A DNA stretch of 24,000 nucleotides from Microbacterium pygmaeum (lineage in GTDB: Bacteria > Actinomycetota > Actinomycetes > Actinomycetales > Microbacteriaceae). The translations under genes were made by a program, and so were the position numbers. Positions 11,904-24,000 of this stretch are shown here, one piece after another. A model generated the notes under the pieces. The model ran no database searches. It was not told the origin of the DNA and was given only the letters and a program-made list of their open reading frames with translations. Within the stretch, counting starts at the first letter, position 1; each line of letters begins with the position of its first letter. The stretch lies in the NCBI RefSeq assembly GCF_900100885.1, contig NZ_LT629692.1:1809966-1833965 (forward strand). Reading direction: 5' to 3'.

Positions 11904-12738
11904 CTGCGACCTCGACCTTCTTGATTCCTTTCGCGCTCACGAGAAGCTGTGCGGAGATCTCCTGATACTCAGGGTCGTCCGGATCGAGCGCGCGCCCAAG
12001 GTCTTCCAGGCGACTCATCAAAGTACGGCCCCACGGCAACTCCGTGTTCTCGCCGTCCTCCTCACGTGCGAGGTAGTTCAGCGCGCCGGCGATGCAGTCC
12101 TTATAGACGCTCATGAACAGGTACGGCCGCGTGGACCGATCGGCGCGCATGTGCCCGATGGCATCGCGGAGACTCTCGCCGGCGATGATGATGATGCGCG
12201 GGCCGTCGTACTGGAAGCGATAGATGTCCGTGTCCGACTCTTCGGTCGAGTACTTGATCGTCACCAGGTCGCGGTCGAGTGTTCGGGAGAACTCCAGGTC
12301 GACGGTGACCGATTCGCCGACGCCGAGGATGTCGCCTTCACGAACACCGAACACAGATGTCCCGAACTCTTCATTGATTCCATCGGGCCGATATGTCTGG
12401 TTCGAGGAGCTGGCAATGATGAGCGGCGTGAGCGTGGTGCTGCCGTACAGCTGGCCATCGTCGAACACGAGCTGACCCTTCCACCCGTCCAGGTCGACAT
12501 ACTCTCTGAAGAGAGTCGATCGGCACTGAACGTCCATCACAATGCGCGCATTGCCGTCGAGGAAGTATTCGTCCATCCACGCCACCGACTGAGTGATGTC
12601 GTATGTGACGACGAGCTGCTGCGATGTGTCTCCGCCCATCTCAGCTTCAATTGCGGCGTGAAATTTGGCATCGCTTCCGAAGTCGTCGCTGAACGAGGAG
12701 AGGACTGGGTACGGGTATGCCTTGGCTCGATAGCTCAC
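11896..12738 (-). CDS. Hypothetical protein, third gene of the GHKL-ATPase operon
   Basis: 280-aa ORF with a GTG start in a GTGA overlap with the ATPase stop. The N-terminus is SYRAKAYPYPVLSSFSDDF. It has an acidic, beta-rich middle and a helical C-terminus. I recognise no motif. Confidence 0.75.
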   Translation of the reverse strand: MSYRAKAYPYPVLSSFSDDFGSDAKFHAAIEAEMGGDTSQQLVVTYDITQSVAWMDEYFLDGNARIVMDVQCRSTLFREYVDLDGWKGQLVFDDGQLYGSTTLTPLIIASSSNQTYRPDGINEEFGTSVFGVREGDILGVGESVTVDLEFSRTLDRDLVTIKYSTEESDTDIYRFQYDGPRIIIIAGESLRDAIGHMRADRSTRPYLFMSVYKDCIAGALNYLAREEDGENTELPWGRTLMSRLEDLGRALDPDDPEYQEISAQLLVSAKGIKKVEVADV

Positions 12739-14660
12739 GGTTCGAGTCGCCCTTCAATCGCATAGTCGAGGTCTGCTGGGTGGAAGACGAGGCGGAGATG
12801 CTTGCGCGCGGTGGCGCTTAGCTCTGTGAATTCGAGTGAAGTGCGCCACGCTGAGCCCGCGGCCACTTCCTCCTCGGTCCGGAACTCCAGACGCTCAGTC
12901 TCCGAGTCGCCCGAGCGGAGCAGGACGAGAGTCTTTCGCGTCCCGTCCACCGGCGTGAAGGCGACATCGGCTACACCTGATCCTGGTGCCGTCCGAACGA
13001 CGCGAAGGTTTCGAACGGGGAGGCCGGTCCGAAGCGCGCTCTTCGCGGAACCCGAGCCATCGCCGGGGAAGGTTCCACCCTTCGACTTGTGCTTTCCTGG
13101 GCCGCCGTTGGATCCGCGGCCGGACGTGTCCGCATCGCCGGTGAGTTCGGTCTGCCTGTTCTCTCGATGTGAGCGAGCCTTCTTGAAGGCGATCCGCAGG
13201 GTTCGGTTCGGCTCGCCCTTCTCGTTGTCAACGCCAGCGCCTAGATCGCCCCGGAACCAATCGTCCAAGTCGTCGACGGACACCTCTTCTTCAATCTGGA
13301 TAGAAGCATGCTCTCGCAGGAGGCTCCGCACGCTCGATTGGAACTTGTAGTAGGCGGCTTCCGCGGACTTTCTCTCCGTCATGTCGCTGATTCGATCAAA
13401 CGCGAACTCCGTGTGCTCTGGGTTCTCGAGCTTTCGCAGAAGCTCCGAGCCCTGGTCTCCTGACACGCAGACAAACAGGTCGAACGGCTTCAGACCCGGA
13501 AAGCGCTGCAGCTTCTCTGCTGCTCGTGTGATCAGCATCCCGTTGCCGCGGGCGACGCCCACGTGACGCCCGACAACTCCATCAAGGCGGAGATACCAGT
13601 TGATCGTTCCGAAGTCCTCCAGTTGGAGTGTTCCGGAAAGATCCTTCTTGCGCACGGTTCGCGCGGATTCGAGTCGCTCGACGACCTTGTCTGTCGGCTT
13701 GAGTATGTTGATCAAGTCCGTTTCGACCACATCGTCGAATGCCTGGGCAACGCTGTCGGCGTCGATGCGTTCGTGCTCGCCCAGATGGACCACCAACTTA
13801 TTCGTAAGCACGGCGAAGTAGAAGTTTGCGACGACTGCGAGCTTGACTTCCGCCCACAGCAACTCTTCTTCCTCTACCCCATACGGCTCTGGAATGTACA
13901 CCGACGTGCCAACGCTCAACGCATCCCGGTCGAGCTCTGGTCGCGCCTGAATCGCCCATCGTGGCACCTCGCCGTCTGTGAGGGGGAGGCACTTCGTCCG
14001 AATGCCGAAGTACCCGGTGGCGACGCACCACTCGGGGGCACCGGTCACTTCGGTAAGGGGGACAGATTGAAGGATGCTCTTCCCTTGGAACCTCGTCTCG
14101 AGCGAACCCTCGTGCTCGATGCGGGAAAGGTAGAAAAGGGTGCGGAGCTCTGACATGGCGAATGGCGCCCGCGACCCATGCCCGAAGGAACCTAGGGCGG
14201 AGCTACTCTCCTTGAAGGTCATGCCAGCCCCCTTCACCAGGGCAAGCCATGGCCCTGATTGCGGATTCTCCGGCGGATCAAAGGTGGGCCCGGTCAGCCC
14301 TCTCGTGTTGTAGTCGTGGACCCCTAGGAACGTGACGTGGCCGTCAGCGACCTGATCGATCGCTCGCTGGTAGAAGCTCTTGCCGGCCTGAGTGTGTTCC
14401 AGCTTGTGCGCTGCCTTGAAGTAGCGAGCGAGCTCATCGAATCCCGTGTCGTCGAGGTCGGACGTCGTGTCGAGCGTGAATCGCACAATGACTGGGTCAC
14501 TGGTCTTGTCCTGCGCGTCGAGCGAGTTCTGGATCATCTCGCGTACGAGTGCTTGAAGGCGCTCGCTCTTGAACATGTCGATTGCCGACACGTTGAATCC
14601 CTCTCGAGTCCCGTCGTTTAGGAACGGAAACTTCCAACCCACATCACTTGTCATGCTCAC
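12735..14660 (-). CDS. GHKL (Bergerat-fold, HATPase_c / MORC-, sacsin- or Hsp90-like) ATPase with a long uncharacterised C-terminal region
   Basis: 641-aa ORF. The N-box is LVREMIQNSLDA, the G1 box is GVHDYNTRGLTG, and the G2 box is LGSFGHGSRAPF, all within the first ~170 aa and in the canonical order. Next come ~330 aa I cannot assign and a low-complexity linker (TGDADTSGRGSNGGPGKHKSKGGTFPGDGSGSAKS). The protein ends in a ~100-aa beta-rich C-terminal domain. Confidence 0.85.
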   Translation of the reverse strand: MSMTSDVGWKFPFLNDGTREGFNVSAIDMFKSERLQALVREMIQNSLDAQDKTSDPVIVRFTLDTTSDLDDTGFDELARYFKAAHKLEHTQAGKSFYQRAIDQVADGHVTFLGVHDYNTRGLTGPTFDPPENPQSGPWLALVKGAGMTFKESSSALGSFGHGSRAPFAMSELRTLFYLSRIEHEGSLETRFQGKSILQSVPLTEVTGAPEWCVATGYFGIRTKCLPLTDGEVPRWAIQARPELDRDALSVGTSVYIPEPYGVEEEELLWAEVKLAVVANFYFAVLTNKLVVHLGEHERIDADSVAQAFDDVVETDLINILKPTDKVVERLESARTVRKKDLSGTLQLEDFGTINWYLRLDGVVGRHVGVARGNGMLITRAAEKLQRFPGLKPFDLFVCVSGDQGSELLRKLENPEHTEFAFDRISDMTERKSAEAAYYKFQSSVRSLLREHASIQIEEEVSVDDLDDWFRGDLGAGVDNEKGEPNRTLRIAFKKARSHRENRQTELTGDADTSGRGSNGGPGKHKSKGGTFPGDGSGSAKSALRTGLPVRNLRVVRTAPGSGVADVAFTPVDGTRKTLVLLRSGDSETERLEFRTEEEVAAGSAWRTSLEFTELSATARKHLRLVFHPADLDYAIEGRLEP

Positions 14661-17116: not shown

Positions 17117-17854
17117 CTAGAAGGCTGAACCAAAGCCCGGTAGCACATCCTCAAGCTCCCGCCTTATCGCGTATGGCGCGTGATTACTCCTCAGTCTTCG
17201 CAGTTCGTCGGCACGCATACGAGGGTCAACTTCGATGAACTGGTTGAGGGTCACGAAATACGGCGCGACTAGCCGCGCCGTGAATCCGCGGGTGTAGGTG
17301 GCGCCCATCACTCCTGCTTCCGACCGTGCCGCGCGGACGACCGCCGTGACTTGCGAATGCCCCACCCGCGTGCCACTGACGAGGTTTCGAAGTGCCCCCA
17401 AGTCGATCGGAGGCTGGTCGGATTCACGAAGCTCCGTGGCACTAGAGCACACAAGTGCGAAGTGATGCAGACGAGATACGTTTCCGTTGCTCGTCACCAG
17501 CATTTCGTCCGGAACTCGGTAGGCACGTCCGTCGAATGTTCGCCCGGCTTGCCACAGGCGTAAGCGTGGCGGCTCGCGGTCTTGTAGACGCGCAGGCGAC
17601 AGCATTGACGAGAATCGCACCAGCGGTTCCGCGCCCTGCGCTAACAACGCTGGCAGGGAAGGACGCACACTGTTTCCGATCCCCCACAGGAACACACCGT
17701 TGCTGGAGTTCAGTTCCTCCGATTTTCTTTGCAGGATGTCATCGATGCGCTCTCCCGACTCCGTGCCGTATCGCGTCCAGCAAAATGCCGAGCCCAGCTC
17801 AACACATGCGGTAGCGTCGCCTTGAGTGCGGTCCGGGGCGTCCGTCAATGGCAT
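17117..17854 (-). CDS. Hypothetical protein, paralog A of an unknown family (see 19589-20137)
   Basis: 245-aa ORF with an ATG start. It shares ordered blocks with the 182-aa protein at 19589-20137: GERIDDILQRKSEE, VFLWGIGNS, HFALVCSS, LVAPYFVTL. It carries an extra ~45-aa C-terminal extension. Confidence 0.75.
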   Translation of the reverse strand: MPLTDAPDRTQGDATACVELGSAFCWTRYGTESGERIDDILQRKSEELNSSNGVFLWGIGNSVRPSLPALLAQGAEPLVRFSSMLSPARLQDREPPRLRLWQAGRTFDGRAYRVPDEMLVTSNGNVSRLHHFALVCSSATELRESDQPPIDLGALRNLVSGTRVGHSQVTAVVRAARSEAGVMGATYTRGFTARLVAPYFVTLNQFIEVDPRMRADELRRLRSNHAPYAIRRELEDVLPGFGSAF

Positions 17855-17896
17855 GCTGCAACCGTACCGGGCGAATCAGTAGGAACGGGGGCCACC

Positions 17897-18928
17897 ATGA
17901 CGCCTTCGTTCACATCGCCCGAGCAACTTCGTCACGAACTTCGGCAAGCTGGCTTATCGAATGACATGATCACCGCGGCTTGGCCGCAGTGGTGGTCCGA
18001 CGATGCCGTCGGATCGACCTCCGCGGAGGCCGAGCTGAGGTTCTCGCTCGCGCGCAAGCTAGGGCTATCTGCGACGTCGCTGCTCGACGACGAACCCGCT
18101 TTCGTGATGCGGGGGCGAGCGAGTTTCAAGCGAGCAACGCTCGGCCGTCAGATCGACGGACTAATGCTCACAACGGTCGGCCACTCGCTTGGGATGCTGA
18201 TCGCGGCCGCAACGACAACCCCTTACCGGCCCTTGACAGGCGCCGCTGCGGTACGCGAGGCCGTCCTCAGCTCTAGTGACTTTGTGGGGCTACAGGACCT
18301 AACGCTTCTTTGCTGGGCTTGCGGGATCCCGGTGGTGTCACAGTCCGTGTTTCCCCTTTCAGCGAAGCGAATGGACGCAATGACCGTGGTTGCCGACGGC
18401 CGCCCCGTCATATTGCTTGCCCGGCGCACCGAGTATCCTGCCTTCCTCTCATTCATGGTTGCGCATGAGTTGGGCCACATCGCGTTGGGCCACGTCACCG
18501 AGGACGAGCCCATAGCGGACTTCTCGACCGAGCACATCGACCTCAGCGACTATGACGCCGCCTATGATCAGGACGACCAGGACGAGGCGGATGCAAACGC
18601 CTTCGCCTTGGAACTGCTTACCGGTGACCCGGCATTCACCGTGAATGCTGATCGCGCTGACTTCAATGCTGCGCAGGTGGCGGCCGCTGCTCGCGAGACC
18701 GGCGAGCGACTACGCGTAGATCCAGGCTTCGTCGCACTCGCCCTGGGGCACAGCACGAAGCGCTGGCCGCAGGTCTATTCGGCGATGCGTGAGTTTGGCC
18801 ATCATGTAGACGACTTGGGTCGGCAACTAAATCAACTCGCCATAAACGAACTTGACGCTGCACAGTTGTCGGATGACTCCTGGGATTACGTGACGCGTGC
18901 CCTCGGATATTCGAGCGACGATGCTTGA
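17897..18928 (+). CDS. ImmA/IrrE-family (COG2856, DUF955) zinc metallopeptidase with an N-terminal helical, possibly Xre-like region
   Basis: I trimmed the track ORF (17729) to the ATG at 17897, which is preceded by AGGAACGGGGG. It has the HEXXH motif in FMVAHELGHIALGHV, followed by an acidic stretch and DEADANAFALELL, as is typical for this family. Confidence 0.8.
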   Translation: MTPSFTSPEQLRHELRQAGLSNDMITAAWPQWWSDDAVGSTSAEAELRFSLARKLGLSATSLLDDEPAFVMRGRASFKRATLGRQIDGLMLTTVGHSLGMLIAAATTTPYRPLTGAAAVREAVLSSSDFVGLQDLTLLCWACGIPVVSQSVFPLSAKRMDAMTVVADGRPVILLARRTEYPAFLSFMVAHELGHIALGHVTEDEPIADFSTEHIDLSDYDAAYDQDDQDEADANAFALELLTGDPAFTVNADRADFNAAQVAAAARETGERLRVDPGFVALALGHSTKRWPQVYSAMREFGHHVDDLGRQLNQLAINELDAAQLSDDSWDYVTRALGYSSDDA

Positions 18929-19613
18929 TCTGCTTGTCGACAACGATGCAGTCGTGAAGCTAGTCCGCTACAGACTCGAGAAAGAGTTCATCCGACACTG
19001 CAACGACGATCCAGCGAAGGATCCGATTGCCCTTCTTGGCACGGCGCGATGGGTTTGCGCTACGGCTTTGCGCCGCGCCGTGGCGAAGCTTGGTGAAGAT
19101 CCCGCGATCTTGGTGTGCTTCGATCAACTTCTACTCGAGGTCGACGTTGTTGAGCCAACCGAAGATGAATTGCGTCTCGCGGCGGCTCTAGAGGATCGGG
19201 CGCGGACACGCGGCCTACCGTTAGACCCGGGAGAGTCTCAACTCGCCGCGGTCGTGTCGCGCCGCCTCGCCTTTTTGCTGACGGGGGACAAGAGGGCAAT
19301 CGCTTCTCTAGAGGCGCTTCTAGACGACTTTGCCGACCTTCGGCCGCTCGTGGGAAGGGTTGCTGCCCTGGAGAACGCGATCATGTCGCTTGTTCTGCAT
19401 CTGGGCGAGCCCGACGTGCGAAACGCAGTTTGTTCGGCCCCGGGGGCAGATACGGCTCTGCGGCTCGCGTTCTCATGCAACTCGCCGTCTTCGTCATTGC
19501 AAGGACTTCTGAGCTACTTGAACAGCCTGCGCCGCGATGCGCCCCGCATCATGGTCGATGCGGACTCGCTTTGCTTCGAACCGCTGCCTCAGTCCCTCAG
19601 GAAGACCGCGTAG
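18921..19613 (+). CDS. PIN-like domain nuclease
   Basis: The ATG at 18921 overlaps the ImmA stop by 8 nt (ATGCTTGA). The acidic quartet is in PIN order: MLDLLVDNDAVVKL (D), LLLEVDVVEPTEDE (E), DPGESQLAAVV, and FLLTGDKRAIASL (D). Confidence 0.65.
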   Translation: MLDLLVDNDAVVKLVRYRLEKEFIRHCNDDPAKDPIALLGTARWVCATALRRAVAKLGEDPAILVCFDQLLLEVDVVEPTEDELRLAAALEDRARTRGLPLDPGESQLAAVVSRRLAFLLTGDKRAIASLEALLDDFADLRPLVGRVAALENAIMSLVLHLGEPDVRNAVCSAPGADTALRLAFSCNSPSSSLQGLLSYLNSLRRDAPRIMVDADSLCFEPLPQSLRKTA

Positions 19614-20137
19614 GGCGCCATTAGTGGCGCCGCTACTGAGATCTTGACCGTTGCGGCGTCCTCCGTGGGCGCGTCAACAACATCGAGACAGGCTTTGTCC
19701 AGCCGGCCGCGAATATAGTCCTTCCCGACTTTGCCTCGCGAGTCGCCTACTCCGACTCGAGTCGCACTCAGGTCTAGCAGGGTGTCAACGTCATCCAGGC
19801 TCGAGAGAACGAGCGCGTATTTCGAACCGAGGACATTTACCTCTGCGGGAATCTCCCGCCACGTTTCGCGGTCCGTCGAGTACTCGCGAGAACGCACTTG
19901 TGCCGCATTGTGATTCGAGTTGATTTCCTGCATGACGAGCGTTATCGGCCCTTCAACTCTTTCCGCAAATTCGCGCACGCGGGTCGGAAAGCAAGAGTTC
20001 CCTCCATATCCCCACATCGCGAATCCAGCTTCCTGCACCTCCCGACGCTTTCTCTCCAAAATGTCTTCGAGCGTCTCGCCGGCATGGACCCCGACTTTCA
20101 TGTAAAGAATGTGGTCTCCCGGTGCGATTTCCATCAC
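19589..20137 (-). CDS. Hypothetical protein, paralog B of the unknown family and third gene of the kinase/transferase operon
   Basis: 182-aa ORF. Its start (GTG 20137 or ATG 20134) overlaps the upstream TGA. Blocks GETLEDILERKRRE, FAMWGYGGNS, KYALVLSS and LMAPYAVFL match the 245-aa protein at 17117-17854. Confidence 0.8.
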   Translation of the reverse strand: MMEIAPGDHILYMKVGVHAGETLEDILERKRREVQEAGFAMWGYGGNSCFPTRVREFAERVEGPITLVMQEINSNHNAAQVRSREYSTDRETWREIPAEVNVLGSKYALVLSSLDDVDTLLDLSATRVGVGDSRGKVGKDYIRGRLDKACLDVVDAPTEDAATVKISVAAPLMAPYAVFLRD

Positions 20138-20961
20138 TCGTCCTCTCCCAGCATGTCAAATTCGTAGCCTCGTTGAACTCCGGCCCCATCGGGGCCGCCC
20201 TTATCGCGGACATATCTCACCCTGGGAATCTGATCGCGACCGTAGAAGTGCTCGAGGTCTACTCCGCGTCGGGGGACACTCTTGACGGGTCGACCGTTTT
20301 GAGGCAAAGAGCTGAGCACGAGGTTGCAGGACTTGAGATCGGGTGCATCGTCGAGGTGATAGGAGTGCAGTTGAGGCGACATCCGACTTACGAAAAAGCC
20401 TGCTTCCAAAGCATGTCTCTGAGTAGCGTGTAAGACCTGCTTGGGCCAATCCAAGTCTTCGTCATCGGCGATGACGATCATCCCATCTCCCTCGTATGCA
20501 AGAAGCTCGAATCCTCGTTGCGTGAAGAGTTGCACGCTCTCTCCCTTGTTGCTGGCTCCCCAGGGCGGGTTTGTATAAAAGCAGTCGAAGCGTTCAATTT
20601 CGTCCGGCACCCCGTCTAGCACGTTGTAGAGCACGGCGTCGAGATTGGTTACACCCTCGGCGGCGGCGAACCGCTTAACGGCGTTGACAATGCGCTCGTC
20701 GAAATCGAAGACTGTAATTTGTGTGGGGGACGTCTCGAGGATGTTTCTGCTCGCCAAATAGGCCACGCAAACGCTGATGGCATCTCCATCTCCGACGAAC
20801 GCGAGCCGCTTCCCGTGTGCCCACCGAGAAACGAACTCGCTCTGAAGAATCATGTCGCCAGTCTTCATATAGATCTGATCAAACTCGCGCAGCGGCTGAG
20901 GACGGTTTTGAACTACGTCTGAAACCGCGTTGATCGCTGCCCGCAAGTCGATGTCAGTCAC
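20134..20961 (-). CDS. BpsA/DUF43-like SAM-dependent transferase (aminopropyl- or methyl-transferase fold with an NPPW motif)
   Basis: 275-aa ORF with a GTG start in a GTGA overlap with the kinase stop. Motif I is RLAFVGDGDAIS, followed by VFDFDERIV and then FDCFYTNPPWG. The protein ends with FFVSRMSPQLHSYH. The order and wording match the branched-polyamine synthase (BpsA)/DUF43 family as I recall it (lGDDDlts...DiDeRl...f.TDPP.T...fn.Y). Confidence 0.75.
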   Translation of the reverse strand: MTDIDLRAAINAVSDVVQNRPQPLREFDQIYMKTGDMILQSEFVSRWAHGKRLAFVGDGDAISVCVAYLASRNILETSPTQITVFDFDERIVNAVKRFAAAEGVTNLDAVLYNVLDGVPDEIERFDCFYTNPPWGASNKGESVQLFTQRGFELLAYEGDGMIVIADDEDLDWPKQVLHATQRHALEAGFFVSRMSPQLHSYHLDDAPDLKSCNLVLSSLPQNGRPVKSVPRRGVDLEHFYGRDQIPRVRYVRDKGGPDGAGVQRGYEFDMLGEDE

Positions 20962-21530
20962 GCGTACCCCACGAATCTGAGAATGTCCGCTGTCACTTCT
21001 CCGAGGGGTCGGTCAGCGCGAATGAAGGCCACCGGCACGCCGAGGGTGATTGCATAGCTCAGCGCGAGCGAAGACTGCAGGCTTTGGTGTAAACCCATAT
21101 CGGTCTCGTCTTGCGCGCGCCTTCCCAGCGCGTTGAGCTGAACCCGCTCGCGAACCGTGGCGTGCGGCCCCGTCAAGCAAACGATGTGTGTGAAGGGAAG
21201 CTCTGTCAATTCATCCGCGCGGTATGGGACGGCACGCAAGCCGTACGATTCCGCGGTCAATGCGTGTGAATCGACGACCGTGTTCTTTAGTCCGGAGAGA
21301 CGGCACAACTCGCCCTTGATCCACTCATCCGCACCCGCCACGTCTGCCGGCGAAATTACAGAGGCTGAGCGCTCACGCAGTTCTGTTTGTGATTTCACGC
21401 GATCCGCAAGCATTCGTGTCAAGATCTCGCCGTAGCTGAGTCTAAGTGCGTCTGTCCTCGCCTCTAACTCCGTGGCGATCGATGATTTGCCGATCGCGGG
21501 CACACCGGTCAGGTACAGGGAGAATGTCAT
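20958..21530 (-). CDS. P-loop NMP kinase resembling archaeal-type adenylate kinase (AdkA-like)
   Basis: 190-aa ORF with an ATG preceded by GGGGG. Walker A is LYLTGVPAIGKSS. The blocks TVVDSHALT...YGLRAVPY and IVCLTGPHATVRERV...GRRAQDE parallel the archaeal AdkA blocks as I recall them (vvvTGvPGvGktT, vDTH...GylPGlP, ii.l....il.Rr...R.Rd.d). Confidence 0.7.
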   Translation of the reverse strand: MTFSLYLTGVPAIGKSSIATELEARTDALRLSYGEILTRMLADRVKSQTELRERSASVISPADVAGADEWIKGELCRLSGLKNTVVDSHALTAESYGLRAVPYRADELTELPFTHIVCLTGPHATVRERVQLNALGRRAQDETDMGLHQSLQSSLALSYAITLGVPVAFIRADRPLGEVTADILRFVGYA

Positions 21531-22099: not shown

Positions 22100-24000
22100 A
22101 TGCGCGGAGGCCTGCAGCGATGGAAGAGAGGCGCCGGATCCGGTGGAGTCGGGCGAGCAATCGACTACGCGGTCAAGGGGACCTGCGACGCACACCTCCA
22201 CCTTTCGACCGGGTCCGATGCACTCGAGTTGTACAGCAATGTCGCCGACGCGAGCGTCACCCGATTCGTGGTTACGAATGGCGCCATCCACGCAGACGAG
22301 CTATCGGCGAGTGCACTCCGGGTGTGGCTCACCGGACACGACCCGGTCACAGGGGAGGAGCGCGGATCCCAACGGCTCAGTGCAGACGCCGACCTCCTAC
22401 TCGATGCAACGCTCAACCACCCCAAGTCGTACAGCATCGCTGCGCTGCTCCATCCGGATCTAGCGACCGAGTTCGAGTCGCTGCAGGACCGCCTACGTGA
22501 CCGGATCCTGACCACCTGGCTAAACGAGCTCAACGCACGTCGCGGTCACGGCGGACTCATCCGGGAAGACATCACCCGCATCGAGGTCGTCGAGCTCAAC
22601 CACCGTCGCTCGCGCGCGCTCGATCCGCACAACCACCGCCACTTCTGGTTGAACGTGAAGGTGCTCGGCACGGACGGCAAGTGGTCCAACGTCGACTCGC
22701 GGGTCGCGATGAAGCTCCACACGCTGATCAACGCCGAAGGCGAGCTCGCCGCGCGCACCGACCCGCAGTGGCTTGCGGCGCTCGCTCGGCACGGATTCAC
22801 CCTCGACGGTGACGGCGAGGTCGCTGAGCTGGCGGGCGTAGTCCGACCGTTCTCACGTCGGTCGGCGCAGATCGAGGCGAACCGAGCCAAGCTCATCGCG
22901 GAGTGGAGTGCCGAGCACGAAGGCGCGAGCCCCAGCATCCGCGTCTTGACGCAAATCGACCGCCGCGCATGGGCGATGTCGCGACCCAACAAGCCCGCCG
23001 ACCTCGACGAGCAATCGTGGGAGGCGACCGTCCGCGACGAGCTTGCGAGTATCGACCCTCGCGCCGCGCTCGACCGTGCGCCAATTCTTCTCGTCTCGAC
23101 TCCGCTCGACGAACTGGACCTCGACCTGCTTGCCGACGCCGCGGTCGTTGATGCAGACGAGCGGTCAACCCGCTCCGGCGGAAGATTCAGCGCGTTCGAC
23201 CTCCGCGCCGGCGCCACCCGCGCTCTCGCGGGGAGCGGCGTCGTCGCGCCCAGGGACGAACTGACCTCGACAATCGACGCGATCGCACAGCGAGCACACC
23301 GTAAGTCCGTACGGCTCACGAAGGACGCCGACATCCCAGGTCACGTCAAAGCGTTCATGGCAACCGAGACGGTGCGCCTGAAGATGCGCCTCGTCAGCCG
23401 CTTTGACGCTCTGGCAACCCCGGGCCGCTCGCTTCTGCCGCAGGAGTTGCGTCAGGCCGCCGCTTCCGGAGACGTCGAGCAGCTGGATCCCTCACAGCTC
23501 GCCGCCGCCTGCGTCATTGCCGGGACGGGCGGCCTCGTCGCCATCACCGGTCCGGCCGGGGCGGGCAAGACCACGATGCTGCGCGTCGCGCACGAGGCGC
23601 TGCGAGGACAATACCGACGGATGCTGGTGGTCGCACCGACGCGCAAGGCGGCGTCCGTCGCGTCACGTGAGGTGGGTGCCGAGGCGTCGAGCCTGCATGC
23701 TCTGCTCGCTGACCACGGCTACCGCTGGAACACCGATGCGGCCGGCGCGCAGGTGTGGACGCGGCTGTTGTTCGGCGAGGCGGACCCGGATAGTGGGGTC
23801 GTCTATACGGGGCCTTCGCGGTTTGAGCTGCGACCCGGCGATCGGATCGTGGTGGACGAGGCCGGCATGGTCGATCTGCAGACCGCGGATGCACTCGCCG
23901 ATCTCGCGCTCCAGCATCAGGTGAGCGTCGCGATGGTGGGCGATCCGTACCAGGCGCTTCCGGTCGGGCACGCGGGAGCGATGGCATCCGCAGTGCGCTT
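22100..24000 (+). CDS. traA: MobF-family conjugative relaxase (TrwC/TraA-type) fused to a RecD-like helicase, truncated by the window end
   Basis: This frame is not in the ORF track because it never terminates. It is my own translation from ATG 22100, the first start after an in-frame TAA at 22076. It reads MRGGLQRWKRGAGSGGVGRAIDYAVKG...NHPKSYSIAALL...ELNHRRSRALDPHNHRHFWLNVKV (relaxase His-triad motif H-x-x-S-R-x-x-D-P-H-x-H-x-H). Further on it has ITGPAGAGKTT (Walker A), RIVVDEAGMV (Walker B) and MVGDPYQALPV. Confidence 0.88.
   Translation, partial: MRGGLQRWKRGAGSGGVGRAIDYAVKGTCDAHLHLSTGSDALELYSNVADASVTRFVVTNGAIHADELSASALRVWLTGHDPVTGEERGSQRLSADADLLLDATLNHPKSYSIAALLHPDLATEFESLQDRLRDRILTTWLNELNARRGHGGLIREDITRIEVVELNHRRSRALDPHNHRHFWLNVKVLGTDGKWSNVDSRVAMKLHTLINAEGELAARTDPQWLAALARHGFTLDGDGEVAELAGVVRPFSRRSAQIEANRAKLIAEWSAEHEGASPSIRVLTQIDRRAWAMSRPNKPADLDEQSWEATVRDELASIDPRAALDRAPILLVSTPLDELDLDLLADAAVVDADERSTRSGGRFSAFDLRAGATRALAGSGVVAPRDELTSTIDAIAQRAHRKSVRLTKDADIPGHVKAFMATETVRLKMRLVSRFDALATPGRSLLPQELRQAAASGDVEQLDPSQLAAACVIAGTGGLVAITGPAGAGKTTMLRVAHEALRGQYRRMLVVAPTRKAASVASREVGAEASSLHALLADHGYRWNTDAAGAQVWTRLLFGEADPDSGVVYTGPSRFELRPGDRIVVDEAGMVDLQTADALADLALQHQVSVAMVGDPYQALPVGHAGAMASAVR

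Follow-up and report, generated by a model that had tools for sequence, protein, structure and literature searches.

Why would two strongly diverged copies of one protein family stand on either side of a peptidase–nuclease gene pair? The question arises from a stretch of 24,000 nucleotides of Microbacterium pygmaeum (contig NZ_LT629692.1, positions 1,809,966 to 1,833,965; hereafter "the window"), in which a sequence-only reading had placed two old paralogues of an unknown family around genes for an ImmA-type peptidase and a PIN-like protein, and had suggested that positions 17117-21530 may function as one larger unit. We find that the two proteins, here named famA and famB, are ancient paralogues of an undescribed family, and that each is dedicated to one half of a mobile five-gene cassette composed of two converging operons (Table 1).

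Two ancient paralogues of an undescribed family

The open reading frames (ORFs) of both proteins lie where that reading had placed them, and the four blocks it had matched by eye (GERIDDILQRKSEE/GETLEDILERKRRE, VFLWGIGNS/FAMWGYGGNS, HFALVCSS/KYALVLSS, and LVAPYFVTL/LMAPYAVFL, each given as famB/famA) all fall in register in a formal profile–profile alignment. Homologues were gathered for both proteins (573 for famA and 186 word-sharing sequences for famB), and 56 of each were aligned. Comparison of the two alignments with hhalign gave a probability of 97.8 % and a significant E-value of 1.1e-12 over 168 columns, which is the whole core, whereas unrelated families of the same cassette, included as negative controls, reached 0.4 % and 0.3 %. 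Pairwise BLASTP recovered 47 N-terminal residues only (36 % identity, E 3e-7), covering the first two blocks. This short pairwise match is what one might expect if the four blocks resembled each other by chance, yet that explanation conflicts with the profile–profile result and its controls, and also with the AlphaFold models of the two proteins (mean predicted local distance difference test, pLDDT, of 93.2 for famA and 89.3 for famB, whose ends are of low confidence). Both models follow the same succession of strand-helix-strand-helix-strand and then a strand-rich region closing in a long hairpin. We thus regard chance as virtually inconceivable; the resemblance is homology, and the earlier observation is confirmed.

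A maximum-likelihood tree built from the famA and famB proteins of 21 cassettes (20 loci and the window) separated them into two clades with 100/100 support and with the same sub-clades on each side, which indicates one old duplication whose products have since been inherited together. A joint profile detected exactly two copies, about 2.4 kb apart, in the genome of the window and in five other genomes. Within one bacterial order, 4 of 401 sampled genomes carried the family, with the copies paired apart from a case cut by a contig end and one genome with an extra famA. Counting all genomes with a match, pairs were seen in that of the window and in most of the 11 others, the exceptions being a case at a contig end and two genomes with extra famA copies. 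Searching 1.84 billion representative proteins with a profile gave 1,198 matching clusters at E ≤ 0.001, so that the family is large but unannotated.

No known family or fold was found for either protein. Searches with the single proteins and with all 56 members of each alignment gave nothing meaningful in Pfam, NCBIfam, PADLOC, or PHROGs, the two profiles matched no PDB sequence at E-values up to 10, and Foldseek found nothing significant in PDB (both models) or in BFVD (famA model). The top, weak Foldseek matches of both models pointed to YTH and PUA-like readers of modified bases (E 0.17-1, template modelling (TM) score ≤ 0.30, root-mean-square deviation mostly >10 Å), but this fold match is not significant and the identity was rejected; the best YTH matches among them (E 0.17-0.4) were discarded as evidence because their TM scores did not exceed 0.30.

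Five genes in two converging operons

The surroundings of the pair were examined by scanning one genome per species, which identified 187 carriers, and by scoring six-frame ORFs of the best 80 carrier loci with profiles of each protein. The neighbours proved to be linked to the paralogues: famA was present in 80/80 loci, the transferase, the PIN-like protein, and the peptidase in 79/80 each, and famB in 77/80, with all three loci lacking famB stopping at a contig edge. The five core genes occurred together and in a fixed order in 77 of the 80 loci, namely transferase and famA, then PIN-like gene and peptidase on the other strand, then famB. Metagenomes yielded 523 relatives, and of the 39 metagenomic loci long enough for the whole cassette, 38 had all five genes. 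A further 11 of 11 loci, drawn from metagenomes and genome assemblies as well as from one plasmid and two viral contigs, were complete. The kinase, by contrast, was found in 26/80 loci. The proposal of one larger unit therefore holds for its core, in which fixed gene order is accompanied by correlated evolutionary distances (see below), but not for its full extent: the kinase is accessory, and the core unit in the window is 17117-20961 rather than 17117-21530.

Table 1. Features of the cassette in the window (positions of the 24,000-nucleotide stretch)
Feature	Coordinates	Strand	Description
famB	17117..17854	-	245-aa paralogue of the effector half; basic; N-terminal 20 aa unconserved; flexible C-terminal tail
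famB–peptidase intergenic region	17855..17896		42-bp divergent spacer
ImmA/IrrE-type (M78) zinc metallopeptidase	17897..18928	+	343 aa; HExxH and E..AD.FA..LL intact; N-terminal 130-aa domain conserved
PIN-like protein	18897..19613	+	238 aa from GTG, or 230 aa from ATG at 18918; overlaps peptidase stop
famA	19589..20137	-	182-aa paralogue of the modification half; acidic; translationally coupled to transferase
BpsA_C-family (PF01861) transferase	20134..20961	-	275 aa; Pfam 3.2e-20; GDGD and YTNPPWG invariant
Adenylate-kinase-like P-loop kinase	20958..21530	-	190 aa; AAA_17/AAA_33; accessory first gene of transferase operon

The cassette thus consists of a transferase–famA operon, with or without the kinase, converging on the PIN-like, peptidase, and famB genes. 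As had been noted for the window, the shorter copy, famA, closes the kinase/transferase operon; across loci, the most frequent arrangement of transferase and famA is an overlap of 4 bp, and the peptidase and PIN-like genes overlap as well. The description of famB as a lone gene diverging from the peptidase at a distance of 42 bp is true of the window but not general, with famB divergent in 37 loci and co-directional in 40, where it opens a famB-peptidase-PIN operon and lies a few tens of bases upstream where measured. No operator-like or shared repeat was found in the 42-bp spacer of the window or in the other control regions examined. Where the two operons meet, the 3' ends of famA and of the PIN-like gene overlap, in most loci across phyla by 15-21 nt and in the window by 25 nt (19589-19613). 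Given this conserved overlap, transcripts of the two operons must read into each other, an arrangement that may allow antisense or interference coupling.

The two halves evolve at different rates. Mean p-distances were 0.35 for the transferase, 0.39 for famA, 0.50 for the peptidase, 0.58 for famB, and 0.64 for the PIN-like protein, i.e. the transferase-famA half is slow-evolving and the famB-peptidase-PIN half is fast-evolving. Pairwise distances were correlated among all five proteins, most strongly between peptidase and famB (r = 0.91).

Some loci depart from the common layout. One metagenomic locus (L110:2067-5748) has a four-gene form in which the peptidase directly follows famA, the PIN-like gene is missing, and HipA precedes. 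Two full cassettes at distant sites were seen on one chromosome (OZ260072.1, loci L038 and L041) and in genome G297. Besides the kinase, accessory genes include an occasional MazG-like gene and, in 14 of the 80 loci (L010:10023-10655 and 13 others), a gene for a protein of about 200 aa that is divergent from famB and absent from the window; its faint MraZ/AbrB-type match makes it a possible dedicated regulator.

Distribution and mobility

The 187 carriers, out of about 185,600 species genomes (~0.1 %), are spread over five phyla and include Actinomycetota, Alpha-, Beta-, and Gammaproteobacteria, Acidobacteriota, Planctomycetota, and Chloroflexota. Since the flanks vary between genomes, the five genes move as one piece, and the cassette is horizontally mobile. 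It was found on two IMG/VR contigs and on 5 plasmids, including a conjugative plasmid of S. fredii on which it adjoins an ABC-three-component system; in 50,697 phage genomes, tblastn detected no match to famA, famB, or the peptidase. Surroundings typical of defence islands or of plasmids and integrative and conjugative elements (ICEs) are frequent, and neighbours across loci include genes of the cyclic-oligonucleotide-based anti-phage signalling system (CBASS), HipA, reverse transcriptase, and Gabija-like genes. In the window, a 641-aa protein on the minus strand (12735-14660) matches the PADLOC candidate system PDC-M33A (E 1.4e-74) and a relaxase-like ORF begins at 22100, so that the cassette lies within a mobile defence island.

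Divergence of famA and famB

Along their shared core, the paralogues keep E21, R29, K30, and E33 in helix 1, a W-G-x-G loop after strand 2, and S74 (famA numbering), as well as a [YF]-A-L strand and the P-Y of the final hairpin. Other conserved residues are specific to one family. In the 56-sequence alignment of famA, H18 is nearly invariant and C49, H76, Y141, D147, K148, and C150 are invariant; in that of famB, the invariant positions are D92, W101, H131, C136, N157, and an S-Q-V-T motif. The two also differ in charge, with a median isoelectric point of 5.8 for famA and 9.0 for famB (8.8 for its core). The C-terminal extension remarked on in the longer copy is real: famB members have a tail with a median length of 28 aa, which in most of them ends in Q-x-[PS]-L-[LE]-x-x-x. 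These family-specific residues, the opposite charge, and the famB tail would fit a functional divergence of the paralogues. The earlier reading had offered, as an alternative to one larger unit, that one copy may be a decoy, immunity, or regulatory variant of the other. Among the longer famB matches examined, the only domain fusion was homologue P0353, which carries a C-terminal Ros/MucR-type zinc finger (Pfam, residues 209-242) and, by eye, a second similar Cys/His stretch near its C-terminus.

Transferase and accessory kinase

The partner of famA belongs to the PF01861 family, scoring 72.9 bits against a gathering cut-off of 27, and has a mean column identity of 73 %. Its best matches among PDB sequences are to BpsA, the N4-bis(aminopropyl)spermidine synthase (5XNC/6J27, 7e-11), followed weakly by the N6-methyladenosine (m6A) methyltransferase METTL5 (1.7e-3); other matches were the PADLOC model mad2 (1.8e-11) and, weakly, MTS (2.8e-4, below cut-off) and Alw26I-type methyltransferases (1.7e-3). 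It shares with BpsA a homologous catalytic Rossmann domain and an acid-rich motif I. In BpsA, Asp159 and Asp160 of the GDDD motif hold the aminopropyl group of decarboxylated S-adenosylmethionine, and Asp225 helps activate the polyamine acceptor (2026 review, PMC12979288). By our own count on the alignment, the D of TDPPE is Asp225 once the PDB chain has been corrected for a tag offset of 20 residues. The cassette enzyme differs at these positions: its motif I is an invariant G57-D58-G59-D60, with glycine in place of Asp159, and T130-N131-P132-P133-W134, invariant in 28 relatives, stands in place of TDPPE, turning Asp225 into Asn and the following Glu into Trp. It also lacks the BpsA N-terminal domain, the match beginning at chain residue 129 of 371. 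We therefore did not file the cassette enzyme as a BpsA, from which it differs further in belonging to a family found in mesophiles on mobile DNA.

TNPPW corresponds to the classic motif IV of alkylating enzymes whose target, an exocyclic or amide nitrogen, is stacked on an aromatic ring, and in its invariant NPPW the transferase resembles the (N/D)PP(Y/F/W) amino-methyltransferases, to which its profile matches are weak. Judging from this motif, the likeliest acceptor would be a nucleobase amine, with S-adenosylmethionine or its decarboxylated form as candidate donors. The C-terminus, where BpsA has an acidic carrier cluster, contains acidic residues, with a consensus of DEYxFELLE, and the window protein ends in GEDE.

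The name given to the transferase in RefSeq, "bis-aminopropyl spermidine synthase family protein", would suit a different explanation, in which kinase, BpsA-like enzyme, and famA form an operon of polyamine or other metabolism that happens to lie beside an independent ImmA-PIN toxin-antitoxin pair with an extra gene, and some loci do sit amid metabolic genes. We consider this very remote. The co-occurrence tallies contradict it, with five genes in fixed order across five phyla, the paralogy of famA and famB ties the two halves together, the cassette is present in only ~0.1 % of species, and the enzyme lacks the N-terminal domain, Asp159, and Asp225 of BpsA.

The kinase, which matches the adenylate kinase model NF003122 below its cut-off (2e-6), opens another possibility, namely that the kinase or MazG-like protein, together with the transferase and famA, produces or degrades a signal (a modified nucleotide or a polyamine-like compound), which famB senses to control the peptidase and PIN-like protein, by analogy with the CARF sensors and ring-nuclease paralogues of type III CRISPR. 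The accessory genes, resembling nucleoside monophosphate kinases (26/80) and MazG, would indeed act on free nucleotides. In the famA model, the conserved residues lie at strand ends and in a glycine-rich loop preceding a helix, an arrangement that would be typical of an anion or phosphate site, and H18, C49, H76, D147, K148, and C150, absent from famB, could form a catalytic set. On the other hand, two thirds of the cassettes have no kinase, which makes the explanation weaker, no known signal-synthase or sensor domain was detected in the libraries searched, and the constitutively coupled, slow-evolving transferase has the look of a housekeeping-type modifier rather than of a synthase triggered by infection. 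We therefore see such signalling as quite improbable.

Peptidase and PIN-like protein

The peptidase carries the ImmA/IrrE signature, with H190, E191, H194, E230, A233, and L241 invariant and D234, A237, and L238 nearly invariant. At the domain level, it matches the PADLOC models capP (2.9e-11) and RmrA (3e-8). Over its full length, it matches PHROG 18577, to which no function is assigned (7e-53). The PIN-like protein has invariant acidic and neighbouring positions in 34 relatives (D15, D17, K21, G112-E113, G130-D131-K132, E159, and D185); its family matched no PDB sequence, one relative carries the Joint Genome Institute (JGI) label "predicted nucleic acid-binding protein", and the protein itself matches PHROG 15597, also without assigned function (1e-9).

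An ImmA/IrrE-type peptidase gene overlapping a PIN-like gene, with a third small gene upstream, recalls the three-component modules of an Xre-type helix-turn-helix (HTH) protein, COG2856 (ImmA/IrrE), and PIN, and the RosmerTA (RmrT/RmrA) system, reportedly described by Makarova et al. in 2009 and in the NetFlax work. The RmrA models match as well, though in the peptidase domain only, whereas RmrA of RosmerTA has an N-terminal HTH. Unlike these systems, however, the cassette has no detected Xre HTH, its upstream gene being famB, its PIN-like protein matches neither RmrT nor any other PADLOC model, and it includes an obligatory transferase and second paralogue. The same peptidase family, next to a small partner with a flexible C-terminal region, occurs in CapH/CapP of CBASS, ImmR/ImmA of ICEBs1, and DdrO/IrrE, which are protease-cleaved repressor switches, but there the partner is an HTH protein and famB is not. 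Finally, the peptidases of several relatives match Peptidase_U49 (PF10463), the family of Lit, an abortive-infection effector of prophage e14, whereas the window protein scores with M78 only and nothing here indicates an EF-Tu target.

The main rival to the interpretation we favour is a protease-switched toxin-antitoxin. FamB would stand in for the Xre/ImmR/CapH/DdrO-type repressor or antitoxin and restrain the PIN-like toxin or its promoter, the peptidase would cut the famB tail upon stress or infection, and the uncleavable famA would, with the transferase, tune or reset the switch. Beyond the resemblance of the peptidase to capP and RmrA, such a switch would fit the position of famB, which heads a famB-peptidase-PIN operon in 40 of 77 loci and diverges from the peptidase and PIN-like genes in the others, its basic charge and disordered tail with a recurrent end motif, its distances, which follow those of the peptidase best, and the one fusion to DNA-binding zinc fingers of Ros/MucR type. 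It agrees less well with the absence of an HTH or other known DNA-binding fold from famB, with a 42-bp control region free of operator-like repeats, and with the separate AbrB/MraZ-like candidate regulator in 14/80 loci, and it leaves the obligatory, slow-evolving transferase and the second paralogue unexplained. As a full account of the cassette it strikes us as fairly unlikely, although it could be partly compatible with a pair of recognition proteins.

A possible matched recognition pair

The best explanation overall, to which we would give just under an even chance, is a two-half mobile cassette in which the paralogues are matched recognition subunits. FamA and famB would bind the same target or ligand through a shared site formed by E21, R29, K30, E33, the W-G-x-G loop, and S74. 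FamA would partner the transferase, for which the NPPW motif suggests an exocyclic nucleobase amine as acceptor, in nucleic acid or nucleotide, and may itself be catalytic or metal-binding through its family-specific H18, C49, H76, D147, K148, and C150. FamB, being basic, equipped with a flexible tail, and devoid of the famA-only residues, would report the state of the target to the peptidase, which would then release or activate the PIN-like nuclease. A common target would account for the separate copy in each half, for the single conserved set made up by the shared residues, and for the difference in evolutionary rate between the two halves.

We tentatively view the cassette as a conflict system, for defence against phages or for addiction, that sets modification against attack, a view that falls somewhat short of probable. 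A more specific version, namely that famA and famB represent a new fold and a matched recognition pair in modification-dependent immunity, in which a famA-guided NPPW enzyme methylates or aminoalkylates a nucleobase amine and famB reads its state and fires a protease-gated PIN nuclease, is somewhat unlikely. The closest parallel in design is restriction-modification (e.g. the shared specificity subunit of Type I systems), which likewise combines a conserved modifying half with a variable attacking half, uses related recognition proteins for both, and has orphan modifying pairs. In contrast to restriction-modification, the cassette has no member of a DNA methyltransferase family and no restriction endonuclease.

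Several points weigh against the recognition-pair interpretation. The accessory kinase and MazG-like genes suit free nucleotides as well as nucleic acids, and the correlation of distances is explicable by shared descent alone. Some assignments are borderline: the window peptidase scores 20.4 against Pfam M78 (E 4.6e-4), just below the gathering cut-off of 22, and the PIN assignment comes from conserved acidic residues only, Pfam PIN matching 1 of 34 relatives at E 0.013. Several loci sit amid ordinary metabolic rather than defence genes, the orphan transferase-famA pairs described below are restricted to few lineages, and the apparent frameshifts in effector genes all occur in "MFD" metagenome-assembled genomes (MAGs) and are probably sequencing errors.

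Whatever its function, this compact cassette is present in no fewer than five phyla, yet neither the PADLOC catalogue nor the literature searched includes it. In PADLOC-DB v2, famA, famB, and the PIN-like protein had no match, and the peptidase and transferase had domain-level matches only; RefSeq annotates the proteins without a PADLOC model as hypothetical. Literature searches on DUF43/PF01861, on BpsA and anti-phage activity, and on ImmA, PIN, and methyltransferase turned up no account of this cassette. FamA and famB, two of the five core proteins, are without detectable relatives in both sequence and fold comparisons. To assign one paralogue to the modifying half and the other to the effector half is unusual as a design, and it offers a handle for experiment in the form of whatever both bind. 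If the transferase does alkylate a nucleobase, the cassette would represent a new chemistry and a new reader fold for self/non-self discrimination; if famB is instead a cleavable switch, control by ImmA-type proteases would extend beyond HTH repressors.

Additional transferase-famA pairs

A few lineages hold an additional, diverged transferase-famA pair without the effector half. Split peptidase, PIN-like, or famB ORFs at four other loci (L033, L047, L053, and L079) were considered as signs of effector-half decay, a suggestion that was dropped given that all are from "MFD" MAGs, which we take to be long-read assemblies, and that indel errors are likelier. In Sphingopyxis (L069:516-5816; also L075, L085, and L106), a second pair with 54-60 % identity, unaccompanied by famB, peptidase, or PIN-like genes, lies 3 kb from a full cassette, between HipB-HipA and genes for an OLD-type nuclease and a UvrD helicase. 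The nuclease was considered as an alternative effector of this pair and rejected: because a UvrD helicase follows it, it is a Gabija-like neighbour and no evidence of a functional link. In Mesorhizobium amorphae (L031:3936-5736), a tandem extra transferase-famA pair and a famA fragment lie directly upstream of a full cassette, and the extra famA reads VDKAVL, without the otherwise invariant Cys150.

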